A DNA stretch of 64,000 nt from Candidatus Sericytochromatia bacterium (GTDB taxonomy: Bacteria; Cyanobacteriota; Sericytochromatia; S15B-MN24; UBA4093). A program made the position numbers and the translations under genes. The notes below the pieces were generated by a model. It did not search any database, was not told where the DNA came from, and worked only from the letters and a program-made list of their open reading frames with translations. Below, piece after piece: positions 1 to 7,436 of this stretch. How positions within the stretch are numbered: position 1 is the stretch's first letter; the number at the start of each line of letters is the position of its first letter. The stretch spans positions 1-64,000 of the forward strand of contig JAKFCT010000020.1 of NCBI GenBank assembly GCA_036676495.1, in the 5' to 3' direction.

Positions 1-88
1 TCTGCAGGGGCCACTTCGCGCCTCTCTCGACCGCCAGCCGCTTGTCTGCCAGGACCAGGCTGGTGGTTTTCCTTTGGGAGGCCGTCAC
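1..88 (-). CDS. Partial phage hypothetical protein (runs off the window)
   Basis: GTG at 88 overlaps the upstream TGA (GTGA coupling); frame is open to the window edge. Confidence 0.4.
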   Translation of the reverse strand, partial: MTASQRKTTSLVLADKRLAVERGAKWPLQ

Positions 89-426
89 GCCGCCTCCTCG
101 ATCTGGGGATCCGCCGGCTCCGCGGCGACGACCTCGGTGACCGTAACGGCCGGGATGGCCCGCAGTTCGTCCAAGGTCTTGTAGTAGCGATCAGTCTTGG
201 TCCTCGACTCTTCGAGCGCCTTCCTATAGGTAACGTCGGCCTCGACCATGTCGGCCCACGCCGTGAGCTTAGAAAGGTACTTGGCCTCCTCCTGCAGGAG
301 GCTGTGCTTCTCACGGGTCAGGCGGTTCAACTCCGCTCGCTCGTCCTCCTTGAGCTCGAGGATCGCGGCTCTCAGGAGCTGGGCGTCGGCCTGCTGGACG
401 AAGCTCGGTGCTTGAATCTCGCGCAT
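85..426 (-). CDS. Phage hypothetical protein, coiled-coil
   Basis: 113-aa helical ORF, tightly packed in the leftward operon. Confidence 0.7.
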   Translation of the reverse strand: MREIQAPSFVQQADAQLLRAAILELKEDERAELNRLTREKHSLLQEEAKYLSKLTAWADMVEADVTYRKALEESRTKTDRYYKTLDELRAIPAVTVTEVVAAEPADPQIEEAA

Positions 427-427
427 G

Positions 428-586
428 CTAGGCCGCCTTCCCGATCACGAGCTCGCTCATGAGGACGCGGACAGGGATGCCTCCGGGGGAGAGCTTGACG
501 AGGGCGACTCCGGTGGCGTGGCGGATCTCGACGATCTCCGCGACGTTCAGGCCAGCGGTGGTCGAGAGGGTCAAAGAACTGCTCAT
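428..586 (-). CDS. Phage hypothetical protein (52 aa, MSSSLTLST...)
   Basis: GAAAGGAG RBS upstream of ATG 586; abuts its neighbours. Confidence 0.6.
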   Translation of the reverse strand: MSSSLTLSTTAGLNVAEIVEIRHATGVALVKLSPGGIPVRVLMSELVIGKAA

Positions 587-599
587 CTGGGGCTCCTTT

Positions 600-809
600 C
601 TACTTGGGTTGCGGCGCCTCCTGGGGCGCCTGGGGGATGATCTTGGTCTTGGGGGCCGGGAATACCTTGATGCCGGATACCGAGTGCTCCAGGTCTCGCC
701 TGGCGCGATCACTCTCGGCCTCCGCGAGGGCTAGGGCGTAGCGGTTGCCCCTCGCGAGCTCCTTGCGGTAGTCGCCCTTGACGGGCTTCTCGTCGCGCCA
801 CGAGCGCAC
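600..809 (-). CDS. Phage hypothetical protein
   Basis: 69-aa ORF whose start overlaps the upstream stop. Confidence 0.6.
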   Translation of the reverse strand: MRSWRDEKPVKGDYRKELARGNRYALALAEAESDRARRDLEHSVSGIKVFPAPKTKIIPQAPQEAPQPK

Positions 810-1039
810 TAGCGCACCCCGTACATCGTGAGGACGTAGGGCAGGCCCGAAAAGATGCCGTGGGCGAGGTAGCCAATGCTGACTGCGATGGCGACCGTCC
901 AGACGAATCGGGTGATCTGCTCGCGACGGGTCTCCTTGAGGGTGCGCGGCCGGGCGAAGATGGCATTGGACTGGTCGATGCGCTGGAGCTGGCCCGTGCG
1001 GCTGCTGGCGGGCCGGGTGATGATGGGGAACTGGCTCAT
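809..1039 (-). CDS. Phage small membrane protein (76 aa)
   Basis: ATG 1039 coupled to the upstream stop; C-terminal hydrophobic helix FVWTVAIAVSIGYLA. Confidence 0.6.
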   Translation of the reverse strand: MSQFPIITRPASSRTGQLQRIDQSNAIFARPRTLKETRREQITRFVWTVAIAVSIGYLAHGIFSGLPYVLTMYGVR

Positions 1040-1368
1040 TTCTCGTCCCCCCACTCCTTCTCCCGCAGACGCAGGATCTCGCCGGTCTGCTGGTTGAGCC
1101 CCACGTCGCGCTTCTCGACGGCGATGATCTCGTCCGCGAGCTGCCCGATGCGATCGAGCGCGGCTTTCACGCCTTCGAGGTTGCCCTGCTCGAGGGCCTT
1201 CTGTGCGGCGTAGCGTTCGGTCTGGATCTGGTGGGCCAAGGTCAGAATCTCCGTGTCCTGGATGCGCTTTTCGATGAGTAGGTCCGATTCGGTGGTGTGC
1301 CGTTCCCTGAGCCTCTGAGGCTTCCTGCTCGGGGGATCCGGCAGCTTCGCGTGTGCTGTCGCGGGCAT
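1036..1368 (-). CDS. Phage hypothetical protein
   Basis: AGGAGG RBS, 110-aa helical ORF. Confidence 0.7.
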   Translation of the reverse strand: MPATAHAKLPDPPSRKPQRLRERHTTESDLLIEKRIQDTEILTLAHQIQTERYAAQKALEQGNLEGVKAALDRIGQLADEIIAVEKRDVGLNQQTGEILRLREKEWGDEK

Positions 1369-1427
1369 GGTCCCTCCTGCTTTGTAAAGTTCGTCTTAAC
1401 CTGCAAACGCGTGGTCGGTTGTTGGGC

Positions 1428-1580
1428 TTACGCTGAGGTCTGGGTTTGGGAATTGATTTGGGTCTGGTGTTTTGCCCACCACTCCTCGTTGCGGATGCCG
1501 GGTTGGTCCCAGTTATGGAGCAGCCAAGCAAACCGCTGGAAATCGAGTGGCGGAACACTGCTAGGCTGCAGGGTCTCCAT
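1428..1580 (-). CDS. Putative 50-aa phage protein (METLQPSS...)
   Basis: AGGAGG-N6-ATG lying inside the 3' end of xis. Confidence 0.45.
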   Translation of the reverse strand: METLQPSSVPPLDFQRFAWLLHNWDQPGIRNEEWWAKHQTQINSQTQTSA

Positions 1581-1761
1581 CGGGGGCCTCCTGGGCTTCG
1601 GACTTGGGCGGGATTCCCTTCGCGAGGTCATCGGCGTCAATCCGGTATTCTCGACCCGCGCGAATATGCGGGAGGCGACCATCCTTAATGGCATTGCGGA
1701 TGAACATCTCACTGACCTTGAGCGCTACCGCCGCCTCCTGAATGGTCAACAGGGTCGGCAT
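1561..1761 (-). CDS. xis: Excisionase-family HTH DNA-binding protein
   Basis: LLTIQEAAVALKVS...IKDGRLPHIRAGREYRI signature; AGGAGGTG RBS. Confidence 0.85.
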   Translation of the reverse strand: MPTLLTIQEAAVALKVSEMFIRNAIKDGRLPHIRAGREYRIDADDLAKGIPPKSEAQEAPDGDPAA

Positions 1762-1801
1762 AAATCATCACCTCCTCGTATCGGTTATCGGTACGTTACT
1801 T

Positions 1802-1830
1802 ACGATACGTCCGAATCGATTAGGTGTCAA
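1802..1830 (-). promoter_or_regulatory. Sigma70-type leftward promoter for the xis operon
   Basis: TTGACA (1830-1825)-N17-TATCGT on the minus strand; overlaps the inverted repeat CGTATCG(1777)...CGATACG(1803). Confidence 0.6.
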
Positions 1831-1888
1831 TACGTTGTACTCGATTATAGGTAGTAACGATTCGTTGTATTTGGTTTACGGTAGTTGT

Positions 1889-2368
1889 ATGGAACGAAGC
1901 CTTAGCCAAATCGTTACGGAGTTTCGGGACCGCTATCACCTTTCCAAGGCGAAAGCCGGGCAGGTGCTTGGAGTCTCCACGCTTTACGTGCGCTCGCTAG
2001 AAGAAGGCGTAGACGTACGTACTGGCCTGCCTTTCAACCCCCGCGAAGCTACCATCCGCCAACTCGCCGCGAAGATGACGGAGTTCGGCTACCCGGTGAC
2101 ATTCGAGGAGCTGATGGTCGCGGCTGGAAAGCTGCCGCAGGAGGCCGTCGACTTCCACCAAGACAAGGCGCATGAGCCGACTGACGAAGACCTGGAGCGC
2201 GGCGAGCTGGCGATCCCCGGCCTGGATGATCTGGCGGCGGAGTCAGACGCGCATTGGAATGAGCTGACCCCCGATGAGAAGCGTCAGGTGCGCGGGGCGC
2301 TTGCCATTGCCGCCAAGGCGGTGATCGCCGCGATCATGAGCGGTAAGAAGCAGCGAAAACTAGAGTAG
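1889..2368 (+). CDS. XRE-family prophage repressor (ImmR/CI-like)
   Basis: N-terminal HTH (FRDRYHLSKAKAGQVLGVSTLYVRSLEEG); divergent from xis; ATG 1889 lacks an obvious SD. Confidence 0.75.
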   Translation: MERSLSQIVTEFRDRYHLSKAKAGQVLGVSTLYVRSLEEGVDVRTGLPFNPREATIRQLAAKMTEFGYPVTFEELMVAAGKLPQEAVDFHQDKAHEPTDEDLERGELAIPGLDDLAAESDAHWNELTPDEKRQVRGALAIAAKAVIAAIMSGKKQRKLE

Positions 2369-2405
2369 GAATCGACACCCTTAGCAAAGACGTAGCCACG
2401 ATGAG

Positions 2406-2843
2406 ATGCCACGATCAATCAACGCAGCAAAGCGCCTGGAAAAGGCGCGCGTCATTGTCCTAGACCTTGAACTCCCACCGCGCATCAGGGGCCTTTCCTG
2501 CCGGGTGCTTGGTTGGAAGGTGGTGCTCTTGAACCAGACGATGGATCGAGTCGAGCGGCGCTGCGTGATGATGCACGAATACCAGCACTTGTGGCTATTC
2601 GGCGGTTACGTCTTCGGGTTTCACGTGAGCTACCGGCATGCCCTCCAGGAGAGCAAGATCGAAGCCGCGGTAAAGAAGGCCACGGCCATGGCCCTGGTTC
2701 CGCCCAAGAAGCTCCGCGATCTCCTCAAGAAGGGGTGGCGGCGAGATGAGATCGCCGAGTTTTTCGACGTGACTCGTGAGGTCGTCGAGGATGCGATCGC
2801 GCTGCAACTGCGCGCCGACTCGTATCCAAAGGAGGGGGGATGA
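2406..2843 (+). CDS. ImmA/IrrE-family metallopeptidase (anti-repressor)
   Basis: VVLLNQ...ERRCVMMHEYQH (HExxH) and C-terminal IAEFFDVTREVV; follows the repressor. Confidence 0.8.
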   Translation: MPRSINAAKRLEKARVIVLDLELPPRIRGLSCRVLGWKVVLLNQTMDRVERRCVMMHEYQHLWLFGGYVFGFHVSYRHALQESKIEAAVKKATAMALVPPKKLRDLLKKGWRRDEIAEFFDVTREVVEDAIALQLRADSYPKEGG

Positions 2844-3106
2844 ACGGGAAGATCATCCACATGCACCTTTGGGCCGCAACGGAGAGCCGAAAGCCCCGCC
2901 GCTTCGCTATCTCGCCTGTGGCTCCAGCGCCATTTCGCATCAACTGGGAAACGCTTCGCTACCACCTGCCGGAGTGCCGGTACGTCGTTGATTCGTGCCG
3001 CGAAGCCTGGATGACGGACCTCTATCTCGCGAGCGCCAAGCCCTGCGGGGCCTGCAAGCCGCCGCACCACGGCCGAGACAGACGGCCGGCTCCGTCACGC
3101 CCATGA
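2840..3106 (+). CDS. Hypothetical protein
   Basis: ATGA overlap with the upstream stop; GGAGG RBS; Cys-rich C-terminus (CGAC). Confidence 0.55.
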   Translation: MNGKIIHMHLWAATESRKPRRFAISPVAPAPFRINWETLRYHLPECRYVVDSCREAWMTDLYLASAKPCGACKPPHHGRDRRPAPSRP

Positions 3107-3447
3107 AGTTCTCTCGCCAAGCTCGCCCCATTACCCAGGCCCACCTCGAGGGCGTCGACCTCGAGCTGCGTGCACCGCGGATGAAGATCGCTGTCAGGAG
3201 CGAGCGCCTAGGGTGGTGGGTTGACCTTTCCTGGCTGACCGATCGCCGGCAATGGAAGATCGCCTATGCCTGGAAGGTCTGGGGCCGCGATGACGGCGCC
3301 GAGCTCGCTGAATTCTTGGTTGAGCGGTTTTTGTCCTGGGAGCCGTGGCACAAAGGAGAGTCGCCGATCCCTGGGTGGCTGAAGGATTGCGCCAAGGCTG
3401 GGATAGCCGTGCCAGTGGAGAGACTGAAAGGGAGGGTAAGGGGATGA
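3103..3447 (+). CDS. Hypothetical Trp-rich protein
   Basis: ATGA overlaps at both ends. Confidence 0.6.
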   Translation: MKFSRQARPITQAHLEGVDLELRAPRMKIAVRSERLGWWVDLSWLTDRRQWKIAYAWKVWGRDDGAELAEFLVERFLSWEPWHKGESPIPGWLKDCAKAGIAVPVERLKGRVRG

Positions 3448-3773
3448 CGATGAACATCACGCCGAAAGAAGTTGAAGCAATCCGCCGCTGGGCCGAGAGC
3501 ATGCCAGAGGTTAAGCGCTGCTGGATCTTCGGCTCAAGGTACAAGGGTGAGGCCAAGCCGGCGAGCGACATCGACATTGCCGTAGAGCGACTGATTGGCC
3601 CTGACGACGAGCCGAATGGAACGCTTTTTTGGATAGATGCAGGGGATGGCTGGAAAGAGGCTCTGCAAGGGTTGTTGCCCTACGTGATCGACCTGCAGCT
3701 CTACGAAGGCCCCAGCGAAACCCCGAGCCTCCATGAATACCTGAAGGTCTCTCAGATCATCTTTGAGCGATAG
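3444..3773 (+). CDS. Minimal nucleotidyltransferase (MNT, Pol-beta superfamily)
   Basis: WIFGSRYKGEAKPASDIDIAV (GS...DxD) and a later IDL motif. Confidence 0.85.
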   Translation: MTMNITPKEVEAIRRWAESMPEVKRCWIFGSRYKGEAKPASDIDIAVERLIGPDDEPNGTLFWIDAGDGWKEALQGLLPYVIDLQLYEGPSETPSLHEYLKVSQIIFER

Positions 3774-3795
3774 CTCACTGCTCAGGAGCTCCGCC

Positions 3796-5331
3796 ATGCC
3801 CGTAACCAGAGCCGTCGTTTACACCCGAGTCTCTACTTCCATGCAGGAAAGAGATGGTGTGTCACTTGAAACTCAGCTTGAGCTTGCCCGGCAGCATTGT
3901 GAGGCAAAGGGATGGGCTCTCACTGAAACCTATACCGACGTAATGAGCGGCAGAAGTGATCGACGGCCTGATCTCAAGCGCTTAGAGGCAGATGCGCAGG
4001 CAAAGTGCTTTGACGTGGTGATCGTCTACAAGGTCGATCGCTTGAGCCGCTCTGCCCGAAAATACTACGAGCTACTAAGTCTTTTCCGGGACAAGGATAT
4101 TTCGATCTTTAGCCTCACCCAGCCTATCGACACCACGACTCCAACAGGCAAGTTCATGCTGGGACAGATGATCCTCATAGCCGAACTTGAAGCCGACAAC
4201 ACGTCGGAGCGCGTCGCTTCGGCAATGCGAACTGTTGCCGCCAAAGGAAAGCACACTGGGGGCTGGTGCCCACTTGGCTATCGTTACATCCCCAAAACAG
4301 TGGGGCCGGATGGGGTGGTGCATGATGGTCATTTGGAACTTGACCAAGTAGAAGCTGAGATCGTGAAGCTCCTATTCGAGACCTTTCTTAGGCTACGGAG
4401 CTGCAGGGGAGTAGCAGTCCACCTGAACGAACTGGGCCACAGAACAAAGAGGGGAAAGCTATTCTCGATTCAGGCGGTCTCGGACATTCTCCGGAACCCT
4501 GCCTATACAGGAATCATAGCCTATGGCCGCTCAGTCGAAATCAAGGGTCGGAGCGGGCGTCGAAGCGTTCCCATTAGCCCAGAAAAATGGATTATCCGAG
4601 AGAATGCTCACCCTGTCATCATCGACCAGAAAACCTGGGATGAGGTGCAGGAGATCATCCGATCTCGCGAGGGGATGTCCTCTCGATTGAAATACGGGCA
4701 ACAGCGCTACCCATGGTCTGGTTTGCTCTACTGCGCATCCTGCGGAAGCATTCTCAAAAGGACAAAGGACACGTCGCGTGGAAGTCTTGGTTTCGCGTAC
4801 GTCTGCGCAGCCTTCAACGTCAAGGGAAAATCAGCTTGTAAATCGCCATGCCGCGCAAGTGAAAAATATCTAAATCGGGTTGTCCTGGTGGAGCTTGATC
4901 ATGCTCTACGCGAACTCATGCGGAAGGCATTGGACGCCCCTGTTACGCGAAAGCAGGGGAAGCCCCAGGACAGAAGCAAGCAAATCGCCATGCTCGAGGC
5001 GCGCCGCGAACGCGAAAAAGAGCTGTTCCGAGGTGGATTTTGTTCGTTTGAGGAGATGGCAACGAAAATCAGGGGCCTTGATGAACAACTGAAAGCCTTG
5101 GCCTTGCCAACCCAAGCACTCGTCCCAGCGCTTCCCGATCTGCCGGATGCCTTTCTTGACCTATGGGAGCGTTTGAACGAAGCAGCGCGAGGCGAGCTCC
5201 TTCGAACCTTTATCGCCAACTGCGAGGTAGCAAAGGACCGCTTCACCATTTTCCTCAAGCCCTTCAATCACCAGCATTGGCCCGAACAACTCATCATGAG
5301 CAAAACTCCCTCGCGTTGGCATAGGGAGTAG
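3796..5331 (+). CDS. Large serine recombinase (integrase)
   Basis: YTRVST catalytic Ser, VYKVDRLSR, recombinase domain, zinc ribbon (CASCG...YVC...C) and coiled coil; AGGAG RBS. Confidence 0.95.
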   Translation: MPVTRAVVYTRVSTSMQERDGVSLETQLELARQHCEAKGWALTETYTDVMSGRSDRRPDLKRLEADAQAKCFDVVIVYKVDRLSRSARKYYELLSLFRDKDISIFSLTQPIDTTTPTGKFMLGQMILIAELEADNTSERVASAMRTVAAKGKHTGGWCPLGYRYIPKTVGPDGVVHDGHLELDQVEAEIVKLLFETFLRLRSCRGVAVHLNELGHRTKRGKLFSIQAVSDILRNPAYTGIIAYGRSVEIKGRSGRRSVPISPEKWIIRENAHPVIIDQKTWDEVQEIIRSREGMSSRLKYGQQRYPWSGLLYCASCGSILKRTKDTSRGSLGFAYVCAAFNVKGKSACKSPCRASEKYLNRVVLVELDHALRELMRKALDAPVTRKQGKPQDRSKQIAMLEARREREKELFRGGFCSFEEMATKIRGLDEQLKALALPTQALVPALPDLPDAFLDLWERLNEAARGELLRTFIANCEVAKDRFTIFLKPFNHQHWPEQLIMSKTPSRWHRE

Positions 5332-5365
5332 GAACTGCGATATCACGTACCCCTATAGTCAGCGT
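5321..5365. other. Candidate att junction (element/host hybrid site)
   Basis: comEC-like coding resumes at about 5361 (SVGQGDA); imperfect inverted repeat ATAGGG(5321)...CCCTAT(5351) on the element side. Confidence 0.55.
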
Positions 5366-6125
5366 CGGACAGGGGGACGCCCTCGTCGTGAGAACGCCGT
5401 CGCAGCGCTGGTACCTGATCGACGGTGGCCCGTGCTGGCCGGGTGGCGATGCCGGAGAGCGGACGTTACTGCCCTTCCTGAGGCGACAAGGATGCCGGCG
5501 GCTCGATGGCGTGATCCTGACGCATGCGCATGACGATCATGCCGGTGGCCTGGCCTCGGTGACGGAGGGACTCCCGGTCTCCGCGGTCTGGGACTCCGGG
5601 CAGCCGGGGGACTCACCGGCCTACCAGCGCTGGCTGGAGCGCGTCCTCCAGCGCCGGATCCCCATGATCACGGTTCAAGAGGGCATGCGCGCCGAGCTCG
5701 AGGCCGAAATCACACTGGAGGTGCTGGGCCCGCCGGAAAGCGCGCACCGTCGAAGCCGATCCGACGCCAACAACAACTCGATCGTGCTGATGCTCCGCTA
5801 CCGGGACTTCCGCATGCTCTTCGCCGGGGATCTCGAGGAGGAGGCCGAGACCCGGCTCCTCGAACACCCGGGTCGACTGCGGGCGACGGTCTTGAAGGTC
5901 GCGCACCACGGCAGTCGCTACGGTAGCGGCCGCGCGTTCTTGAAGGCCGTTCGTCCGGAGGCCTCCCTCATCTCGGTGGGAGCGCAGAATACCTTCCGCC
6001 ATCCGGCCCCGGAGACCCTGGCACGGCTGCGGCCCTTCGGGCGGGTCTACCGTACCGACCAGGACGGAGCCGTCACGCTGCGAAGCGACGGCGAGACCTG
6101 GAGCCTCAAAGGCTTTCACGACTAG
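5361..6125 (+). pseudogene. comEC: 3' fragment of comEC/rec2 (metallo-beta-lactamase domain)
   Basis: SVGQGDALVVRTP...LIDGG, THAHDDHAGG, NNNSIV, FAGDLE, KVAHHGS, ISVG..N.F.HP, YRTDQDGAV; in-frame stop at 5322 and no membrane competence domain upstream. Confidence 0.85.
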
Positions 6126-6190
6126 CGGCGAGCATCACGCTTGCGGCTAGGGTCGCGTATATGGCTAGGGTATTCGTGCCTGCGGCTCAG
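6125..6190. repeat. Cluster of GCGGCTAG-type repeat units
   Basis: GCGGCGAG 6125, GCGGCTAG 6143, ATGGCTAG 6161, GCGGCTCA 6182. Confidence 0.5.
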
Positions 6191-6191
6191 A

Positions 6192-6869
6192 TCAAGAAAG
6201 CGAAGCTTGAGGCTTGGCGACGCTCAGGGGCAGCGCGCCGCGCTCGATGGCGAACAGGAAGAACGCATAGAGTTCGTCATAGTCGAGCATGCCATCCTGG
6301 TTCGCGTCCACCGCCTTGCTGGCGAAAGCCTCCTTGAGGATCTTCGCCTTCACGTCCTCGAGCTCCAGCTTGGCGTAGGGGCTCCAGGGCTGGGGATCGA
6401 ACTGAAATTGCTTGGCGGCGAGCAGATCGTCCCGGGTGAGCTTGCGATCGCGATCCTTGTCGAGTGCTTTCACGCAGCCCGAGCGGATCCGGATGAGGCG
6501 TTCGGTCATGACGGTGACGATGGCGTCGGTGACCAGTTCGTCGAGCGCCAGCAGGCCATCGTGATCCGTGTCCTTGGAGCGGAAGACGGCTCGGCTATAG
6601 CCAGGCAACTTGGCCTGAAGTTCTGCCAGGGAGAGCTTGCCGTCCTTGGGGTCGCGGTCCGCGAAGGCCATCAACTCCTGGGTGTCGACTTCCAGCGAGG
6701 CCTTCATTTGCTTTCGCATGGTCGTCTTGGAGGCGAGCGCCACGACATCGTCGGATCCCAGTGCCTCGAAGGAGGCCATGCCCGTGAGGGGGGCCGAAGG
6801 CATGACGATCGGGCTGCCGCAACCTGCCAGCAGGGAGGCGAGTATCACCGAGGCGGCCAGCTTCTTCAT
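6192..6869 (-). CDS. EF-hand lipoprotein
   Basis: Lipobox LLAGC; four DxDxDG-like loops. Confidence 0.8.
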   Translation of the reverse strand: MKKLAASVILASLLAGCGSPIVMPSAPLTGMASFEALGSDDVVALASKTTMRKQMKASLEVDTQELMAFADRDPKDGKLSLAELQAKLPGYSRAVFRSKDTDHDGLLALDELVTDAIVTVMTERLIRIRSGCVKALDKDRDRKLTRDDLLAAKQFQFDPQPWSPYAKLELEDVKAKILKEAFASKAVDANQDGMLDYDELYAFFLFAIERGALPLSVAKPQASLS

Positions 6870-6965
6870 GGGCATTCCTCCGAGCAGACGTACCCCATGG
6901 GTATCGACGCGGAAGCGGGCGAGTTTCTTGCCTTTCGGATAACACGCCTTTAATTCAAGGTTAAA

Positions 6966-7436
6966 CTACGTGCGCTCCTCCTCAGGAGGGTGCTGGTGGT
7001 GAAGCCGCTGATGCAGCAAGCGCAGGTCAGCGTCGAGATCGACGACGACCTGGTGGAGGCGGGCGCTCAGCGCCCGGTAGAGCAGGCGCGCGAAATCGGG
7101 GCGCGTCTCCAGCAAGCCCCGCAGGAGGTCGCTGGCGATCACCCCGACGACGGTATCGCGAAAGGCCACGGCGGTCGTGGAGCGGGGGGAGGCGGCGAAG
7201 AGCGCCCCTTCGCCGAAGACGGTCCCCTCGTCGAGAATCGCGAGGCGCAGCATCTTCCCCGAAACCGACTCCTTCATGATCTCGACCAGCCCCCGGCGCA
7301 CGACGTAGATATGCGCGGAGGGGGCCCCTTCGGCGAAGATGATCTGGCCCGGTTCGAACGCGCGCGTCTGCCCCAACTGGAGCATGGCCTGCCAGCCGAG
7401 CGGATCGAGGCCCGGGAGGTCTTTGAAACTGTGCAT
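6966..7436 (-). CDS. Stand-alone cyclic-nucleotide-binding domain protein
   Basis: IIFAEG...FGEGALF...PRSTTAVA; no C-terminal HTH. Confidence 0.85.
   Translation of the reverse strand: MHSFKDLPGLDPLGWQAMLQLGQTRAFEPGQIIFAEGAPSAHIYVVRRGLVEIMKESVSGKMLRLAILDEGTVFGEGALFAASPRSTTAVAFRDTVVGVIASDLLRGLLETRPDFARLLYRALSARLHQVVVDLDADLRLLHQRLHHQHPPEEERT

Follow-up and report, generated by a model that had tools for sequence, protein, structure and literature searches.

A serine-recombinase prophage within comEC of an uncultured Sericytochromatia bacterium, probably an ordinary lysogen at a conserved target

Host genes split by a mobile element and rebuilt by its precise excision are known from Bacillus subtilis, where large serine recombinases reconstitute spsM and sigK by excising SPbeta and skin, respectively. 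Excision of both elements is tied to sporulation and occurs in the terminally differentiating mother cell. The prophage residing in comK of Listeria monocytogenes (phi10403S / A118 type) also encodes an integrase of the serine class. Its precise excision restores comK, as formulated in the 'active lysogeny' model (PMC7397523, in the part of the article available). Phi1207.3 of Streptococcus pyogenes and related prophages encode serine recombinases and use a GA dinucleotide of comEC itself as their integration site, according to the accessible sections of PMC4260502. More broadly, the available part of a 2025 review names comK, comGA, comFA, comEC, comM and ssbB as targets of mobile elements and discusses these insertions as transformation interference (PMC12378983), and the benefit proposed for them is an escape from 'chromosomal curing' by transformation (PMC12378983, PMC4774983 and PMC11441513, each in the portion available). 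The locus described here lies in the first 64 kb (64,000 nucleotides, hereafter the window) of contig JAKFCT010000020.1 (C20), from the Candidatus Sericytochromatia genome GCA_036676495.1 (G000). The window opens with the right arm of a prophage ending in a serine integrase gene, directly followed by the 3' part of comEC. The insertion of a serine-recombinase prophage in comEC is a familiar kind of event, which is well resolved in the present case and occupies another site in the gene. We consider it probable, with good confidence, that a siphovirus-like temperate phage integrated in comEC by means of its own serine integrase, as ordinary lysogeny at a conserved and dispensable target.

The streptococcal group offers several likenesses. 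As in Phi1207.3, Phi10394.4, phi29961 and the Streptococcus suis phage phi-SsuSH0918_comEC, which is named for its comEC site, a tailed prophage is located inside the metallo-beta-lactamase (MBL) domain of comEC. Its recombinase gene is likewise placed at the end of the element, adjoining the comEC 3' fragment and reading toward it, and the crossover core is likewise a dinucleotide, GA in Phi1207.3 (same partial source) and probably CA here. In the phi29961 record, two serine-recombinase genes are immediately followed by features annotated 'comEC gene 3' end, disrupted by integration' and 'attB 3' end'. The comEC fragment of phi29961 starts at residue 54 of our MBL query (the T of THxHxDH), whereas the present fragment starts at residue 3-4 (VGQGD), about 50 codons upstream. 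The streptococcal elements carry two or three integrases and the present one a single integrase; they reside in Firmicutes and not in an uncultured, high-GC (guanine plus cytosine) soil bacterium; and, unlike them, no resistance or toxin cargo is seen here. The best streptococcal phage integrases are about 29-31% identical to that of the window and the best matches among phage records do not exceed about 31%. The Listeria prophage also interrupts a competence gene, but this gene is the regulator comK there and the channel/nuclease ComEC here; moreover, its non-lytic excision in macrophages is demonstrated by experiment, whereas the present locus is known from sequence alone. SPbeta and skin share with the present locus the split host gene and the serine recombinase, in a developmental context that is known for them while none is known here. 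Finally, comM islands of Acinetobacter, prophages in comFA, comGA or comYC and the comEC island of Streptococcus pneumoniae are likewise mobile elements in a gene of DNA uptake or processing, but their recombinases, elements and hosts differ from those of this prophage. The literature searched yielded no competence-gene insertion from this lineage and no paper linking comEC with 'large serine recombinase', supplementary files being outside the search; the only active-lysogeny papers found concern Listeria comK, none having comEC as its target.

The genome G000 is a metagenome-assembled genome (MAG) of 106 contigs, estimated as 91.9% complete and 6.7% contaminated, and its class is represented by 47 species genomes in the collection used. 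Two genomes of the same genus (G001 and G002) and further relatives of the same family (G003, G005 and G008) were used for comparison. Among the sequencing runs, X1 is the probable source sample, while X2 comes from a groundwater metagenome of a different study; X3 and X4 contain almost nothing of the stretch and yielded only short, divergent pieces. Window parts uncovered by X2-X4 are no evidence either way. Domains were identified by Pfam and PHROG profile searches, and the two comEC halves were aligned with their counterparts in relatives using MAFFT. The coordinates of all features are collected in Table 1.

The integrase matches the Pfam families Resolvase (PF00239, 2.1e-37, residues 6-153), Recombinase (PF07508, 7.8e-24) and Zn_ribbon_recom (PF13408, 1.4e-07) as well as the PHROG_95 integrase family (1.4e-109). 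Across 13 homologues the nucleophile Ser13 (in RVST) is nearly invariant, while D81, R82, R85 and the zinc-ribbon residues C313, C316, C337 and C348 are invariant. With its catalytic domain, recombinase domain and four-cysteine zinc ribbon, the protein is by domain composition a large serine recombinase. When compared to the 47 genomes of the class, its sole match was found in G021, at 33% identity; G001 and G002, whose comEC genes are intact, display no match at E <= 1e-30. A search of IMG/VR with the integrase gave four pattern matches, with no relative among them. In a survey of 80 comEC-like loci from genome_contigs, a serine-recombinase match was found within the flank of 0.

The MBL frame opens after a TAG codon at 5322-5324, in another frame than the integrase, and runs to 6125. 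It reads GVGTAISRTPIVSVGQGDALVVRTP, then LIDGG, then THAHDDH, with RTPIVSVGQGDALVVRTP ahead of LIDGG. The SVGQGD motif starts at 5361, 30 bp past the integrase stop codon, and the frame is devoid of ATG, GTG or TTG upstream of a GTG at 5388. The Lactamase_B match was obtained with the 258-residue translation of this frame, which is 75-78% identical to the ComEC C-termini of G001 (798 residues) and G002 (about 786 residues); the similarity is not due to chance, given such identity to ComEC of the same genus. The closest named ComEC MBL domain, from an Abditibacteriales genome, is 46% identical. The GC content rises from 0.53-0.54 across the integrase to 0.66-0.68 across the MBL part and, on a larger scale, amounts to 0.53-0.61 over positions 1500-5000 versus 0.64-0.71 in the host DNA on the right.

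The remainder of the gene is located on contig C79, where the sole match to the Competence domain (PF03772) in G000 was found (C79:27019-27810, minus strand). The 594-residue open reading frame (ORF) listed in Table 1 is ComEC-like up to ...DLSIVMLSIG, then continues into phage DNA and reaches a stop codon 46 codons further on. A ComEA-type gene (SLBB and HHH_3 domains, 1.9e-20) is directly upstream, and dprA is present in the genome as further competence context. The two halves abut on G001 ComEC at ...VLGIGQGDAIV... with no residue lost or doubled, the C-terminal half beginning with ...SVGQGDALVV. Their divergence from the same-genus genes is 69-70% identity for the N-terminal half and 75-77% for the C-terminal half. 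The G000 gene is split over C79 and C20 and so is not read in a single frame; by its channel and MBL domains and its comEA neighbourhood it is a disrupted member of the ComEC/Rec2 family. An earlier note, made from the window sequence, had described a startless comEC MBL frame about 30 bp after the integrase stop, taken it for the 3' half of a comEC interrupted by a serine-integrase prophage, and pointed to the other prophage end as the place of the 5' half. The frame is as described, the halves abut exactly on ComEC of relatives and the 5' half is on C79, in agreement with that note on each point.

Of 41 genomes, comprising G000 and relatives as distant as the same class, 38 gave a match to the MBL half when this was used as a query. 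The matching segment forms the C-terminal end of a 778-970 residue open frame in G001, G002, G003, G005 and G008. Both halves map to a single ORF in G001 (798 residues), G003 (778 residues) and G008 (792 residues), and to one 970-residue open frame in G002, of about 786 residues when counted from its likely start. The earlier note had named a stand-alone MBL gene in relatives as the finding that would speak against an interrupted comEC; no such gene was seen in the relatives examined from this genus or family. The explanation that the frame is an independent gene with GTG 5388 as its start codon, carried by the phage or present as a paralogue in the host, and unrelated to the comEC piece on C79, could draw on the G-rich stretch upstream of this GTG and on the existence of stand-alone MBL genes in phages (GBSV1, NatCom) and in distant bacteria. 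Among the 80 comEC-like loci, 55 have a match to the N-terminal half and 17 have none upstream, 15 of these 17 having frames of only 294-646 residues. Against it, ComEC similarity begins 9 codons ahead of GTG 5388 and continues the C79 half without a gap, the best match in five relatives of the same family is the C-terminus of a 778-970 residue frame, the GC content is host-like, the attachment-site symmetry reported below is centred on the junction, and G000 contains no other Competence-domain gene. An independent gene is extremely improbable in view of these observations.

The phage-host junctions were named attL (on C79) and attR (in the window). Read in the sense of comEC, they share the interrupted block TCAGC.TCGG.CA, corresponding to window positions 5359-5371. 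Serine integrases typically recognize an attP of about 50 bp that is symmetric and an attB that is weakly so, around a non-palindromic central dinucleotide. In order to rebuild attP, the phage-side arms from the window and C79 were joined by script and the P arm of attR was compared with the reverse complement of the P' arm of C79. In the resulting attP the dyad symmetry around CA holds at 22 of 30 positions, while the same test performed along the prophage averages 8.1 and never exceeds 18 (3820 positions). Its inner repeat GTCGGA / TCCGAC is perfect and its outer repeat CGTACCCCTATAG / CTGTAGGGGTACG matches at 12 of 13 positions; the host-side (attB) arms display a symmetry of only 9/30. Crossover most likely took place at CA 5370-5371, judging from this symmetry, although the identity block 5359-5371 is compatible with other points too; if CA is right, the restored codons read LSIGQGD. 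The insertion had previously been placed inside comEC at the VGQGD motif, which stands, and at positions 5355-5362, for which the CA at 5370-5371, within the block 5359-5371, is to be preferred. Since an independent Logan contig of X1 spans positions 3345-5640 with 0 differences, the attR junction did not arise as an error in assembling the MAG. The exact 26-nt P-arm pattern gave 0 matches in IMG/VR, and hence no attP of a free phage.

These results also bear on the explanation that C79 and C20 originate from different strains or organisms and that the split gene exists in no single cell. Fragmentation of the MAG into 106 contigs, its 6.7% contamination and the presence in the sample of two related phages, which break the assembly at both inner ends, would be in its favor. 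Each junction is nevertheless internal to its contig, attR recurs in the independent X1 contig, the two comEC pieces display matching divergence, and both junctions have a common core and together form a symmetric attP. An assembly or binning artefact is consequently very improbable.

The element is arranged as a normal temperate phage. Positions 1 to about 26,900 of C79 (about 26.9 kb) consist of phage late genes encoding a ParB-methyltransferase, the large terminase, portal, head protease/morphogenesis protein, scaffold, major head protein, tape measure and tail proteins. A possible endolysin adjoins the C79 junction, with a weak match to phrog_30036 (function unknown) and none in Pfam. In the sense of comEC the order is comEA, comEC 5' half, attL, late genes reversed, then, beyond the unassembled middle, early genes, putative repressor, ImmA, nucleotidyltransferase, integrase, attR and comEC 3' half. 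According to the preferred reading of ordinary lysogeny, the large serine recombinase of the phage recombined attP with an attB located in comEC at the codons for LS(I/V)GQGD, with which the MBL nuclease domain opens. The prophage splits the gene exactly, at the first strand of this domain. The lysogen holds comEA and comEC codons 1 to about 548 (DUF4131 and the Competence channel) before attL, and codons from about 549 to the end after attR. It would possess no intact ComEC and, an intact protein being impossible to make, transformability is probably lost or poor. Recombination of attL with attR by the integrase together with a directionality factor would restore comEC without a scar. The most likely reason for the choice of comEC would be that it is a conserved, dispensable target, and the knock-out of DNA uptake, be it a side effect or a benefit under selection, would in addition protect the element from deletion by transformation.

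A number of observations weigh against this reading and have to be set beside the evidence above. Contig-level support from reads covers the attR junction and not attL. The two prophage ends are on different contigs of the MAG, C79 and C20 do not overlap and the middle is unassembled; the assembly breaks at the inner ends because a second, related prophage tangles the graph. None of the 106 contigs contains the 26-mers expected at attB and attP junctions. Among the prophage genes inspected, none could be named as the directionality factor beyond a weak candidate with an HTH_17 domain. The truncated half of the channel could also remain partly functional. Among 81 serine-recombinase loci (80 from metagenomes and that of G021), 0 have a tblastn match to either comEC half at E <= 1e-4. 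This includes the closest integrase homologue, L024 (46% identity), which is followed by unrelated DNA without comEC, and the integrase clade is thus not generally directed to comEC. In favor of the reading, a 190-nt contig of X2 can be aligned to window positions 5359-5491 with 2 differences, and its remaining 57 nt are unlike the phage arm. The alignment stops exactly where the att identity block begins on the left, and two differences are the number predicted for an attB crossed over at CA; judged by these alignment bounds only, the contig would fit a close relative in which the site is unoccupied. The other X2 pieces are more divergent.

The earlier note went further and proposed that ImmA-triggered excision couples DNA damage to competence. 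The ImmA/IrrE-type peptidase gene is present at 2406-2843 as it had stated; the coupling found no support, as the excision junctions are absent from the assembly and induction is normally lytic. In its general form this explanation makes the prophage a regulated competence switch, in which stress leads to precise non-lytic excision, comEC is restored, the cell becomes transformable and the element reintegrates ('active lysogeny'). The geometry would permit a scar-free restoration of comEC, the halves abutting exactly, although this is an argument from geometry only. The enzyme belongs to the class found in gene-reconstituting elements such as the Listeria comK phage (on the partial source already given), SPbeta and skin. 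In addition, the putative repressor and ImmA module could sense damage, and the site seems polymorphic in nature, if the X2 contig is taken as an empty site. However, plain lysogeny predicts such polymorphism equally, the attB and attP words expected as excision products are missing from the 106 contigs, and no host-controlled regulator of excision was seen. SOS-type induction of a complete phage normally results in lysis. The prophage appears to be complete and lytic-competent (terminase, portal, capsid, tail, possible endolysin), so that the cell would not normally survive an ImmA-type induction. In a weaker variant, the truncated channel half would remain functional in trans together with an MBL fragment, the latter expressed by read-through out of the integrase gene. 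A competence switch, this variant included, is regarded as quite unlikely, and use of the insertion by the host as a regulated switch is not favored.

The opposite possibility is a locked-in prophage, that is a permanent comEC knock-out on its way to a pseudogene, through want of a working directionality factor or through a defective middle. The absence of a nameable directionality factor and the unassembled middle would fit such a state. So would the mean word depths in X1 of prophage and host contigs, which are alike (17.8, 19.2 and 19.8) and give no sign of replication, although word depths are not copy numbers, as the tool itself warns. The phage genes inspected and both comEC halves are, on the contrary, open frames free of internal stops, the att arms are undecayed, and the probably empty site in a near relative (X2) argues for a recent or reversible event. 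A locked-in prophage is unlikely on this evidence, and ordinary lysogeny is retained as the preferred reading.

The targeting of DNA-uptake machinery by mobile elements now extends beyond streptococci, Listeria and Gammaproteobacteria, with an example from an uncultured high-GC soil lineage for which both gene halves, both att sites and a likely crossover are available. The locus also supplies a new natural integrase with its predicted attP and attB, the latter in a very conserved protein motif; such integrase-attP-attB pairs are useful as orthogonal recombination tools. Should non-lytic excision prove true, the control of competence by active lysogeny would have a second, independent example. 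Should the switch prove true, it would be the first on comEC and the first outside Firmicutes, and would confer transient transformability in a barely studied class.

Table 1. Coordinates of the features discussed, in the window unless a contig is named
Feature	Position	Strand	Evidence or remark
Prophage right arm (early/lysogeny module and integrase)	1-5369	.	phage-type genes; reaches contig start
Early ORF, 113 residues	85-426	-	no Pfam/PHROG match; counterpart on C104 by position and similar N-terminus (ORF lists)
Early ORF, 110 residues	1036-1368	-	no Pfam/PHROG match; first ~50 residues near-identical to C104 ORF (ORF lists)
HTH_17 (MerR/excisionase-like) protein, 66 residues	1561-1761	-	Pfam HTH_17 3.9e-11; head of leftward operon
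Putative repressor	1742-2368	+	no Pfam/PHROG match; divergent from HTH_17 gene, upstream of ImmA
ImmA/IrrE-type metallopeptidase (anti-repressor protease)	2406-2843	+	Peptidase_M78 9.9e-10; PHROG metallo-protease 3.3e-08
ORF, 150 residues	2995-3447	+	no Pfam/PHROG match
Nucleotidyltransferase (Pol-beta fold), cargo	3345-3773	+	Polbeta 7.4e-09, NTP_transf_2 6.5e-06; directly upstream of integrase
Large serine recombinase (phage integrase), intact	3796-5331	+	511 residues from ATG; stop 5329-5331
attR P arm	5340-5369	+	repeat arm CGTACCCCTATAG (5346-5358, 13 bp) and inner arm GTCGGA (5364-5369)
comEC 3' fragment, MBL nuclease domain	5361-6125	+	Lactamase_B 2.8e-19; THAHDDH motif
Probable crossover dinucleotide CA	5370-5371	+	common to attL/attR; exact centre of attP dyad
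attR B' arm (host comEC DNA)	5372-5401	+	codon-for-codon alignment with G001, G002 comEC
EF-hand calcium-binding protein and cyclic-nucleotide-binding protein	6192-7436	-	EF-hand_7 5.4e-11, lipoprotein-like by eye; 2.4e-20; 3' of comEC
comEC 5' half, 594-residue ORF	C79:26746-28530	-	DUF4131 9.7e-36, Competence 1.6e-41
ParB-domain/DNA-methyltransferase fusion	C79 (L002) 2711-4006	+	PHROG_498 3e-160
219-residue protein, last phage gene before attL	C79 (L001) 623-1282	+	lipobox-like N-terminus by eye; no family match
Second methyltransferase, linking contig	C55 (L185) 6104-6913	-	

In the lysogeny module, the HTH_17 protein also matches PHROG families 'HTH DNA binding' and 'excisionase' (8e-08 to 8e-06), and may be either a Cro-like regulator or a weak candidate for the directionality factor. 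The ORF at 1742-2368 is a putative repressor by its position, and its true start is probably a later ATG. The nucleotidyltransferase could represent toxin-antitoxin cargo of the MNT type or defence cargo. At the other end of the element, the 219-residue protein next to attL is perhaps a spanin, or else an exclusion protein. Its gene is followed by a GC-rich hairpin, which would terminate the truncated comEA-comEC transcript as well.

The assembled arms amount to at least 32.3 kb. The head of C79 overlaps C55 by 123 nt and the head of C20 (first 102 nt) overlaps those of C78 and C2. Contigs C55, C78, C2 and C17 (L185, L186) carry genes for a RuvC-like resolvase, a DNA methyltransferase, a nucleoside deoxyribosyltransferase and SbcCD-like proteins, and the orientation of their phage genes fits; C78 and C2 are 80-96% alike in parts. 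Together these four contigs probably make up the missing middle of the prophage, represented by two variants, where its DNA-metabolism genes would probably be found, and the whole prophage probably measures about 46 kb with one copy of each linking contig. The second, related prophage of the bin is recognized by the tail of C104, which is 85.6% identical to window positions 1-1450. In C104:16126-21871 (L184) it possesses a different immunity region and its own 559-residue serine integrase (PHROG_95, 1.2e-72), beside a host gene from C104:15931. An X1 contig joins window position 1450 to 3101 at a depth of 18.2, window positions 3101-3395 being also involved; it is probably the C104 variant.

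Two ComEC-like genes were encountered in phage records. In Geobacillus phage GBSV1 (DQ340064.2), an 846-nt coding sequence (about 281 residues) with the annotation 'late competence protein' is flanked by the lysis and lysogeny modules, and gut NatCom phages (PV036436.1) encode a 491-residue protein whose C-terminal 250 residues or so match the whole MBL query. Such phage-borne MBL genes could have originated as comEC ends captured by phages, or they may encode nucleases of the phages themselves. In the MBL region of the window, another X1 contig matches up to position 5462 and is followed by 91 nt unlike the window, which may correspond to another strain or to a paralogue. The two genes at 6192-7436, downstream of comEC, are ordinary host genes outside the element.

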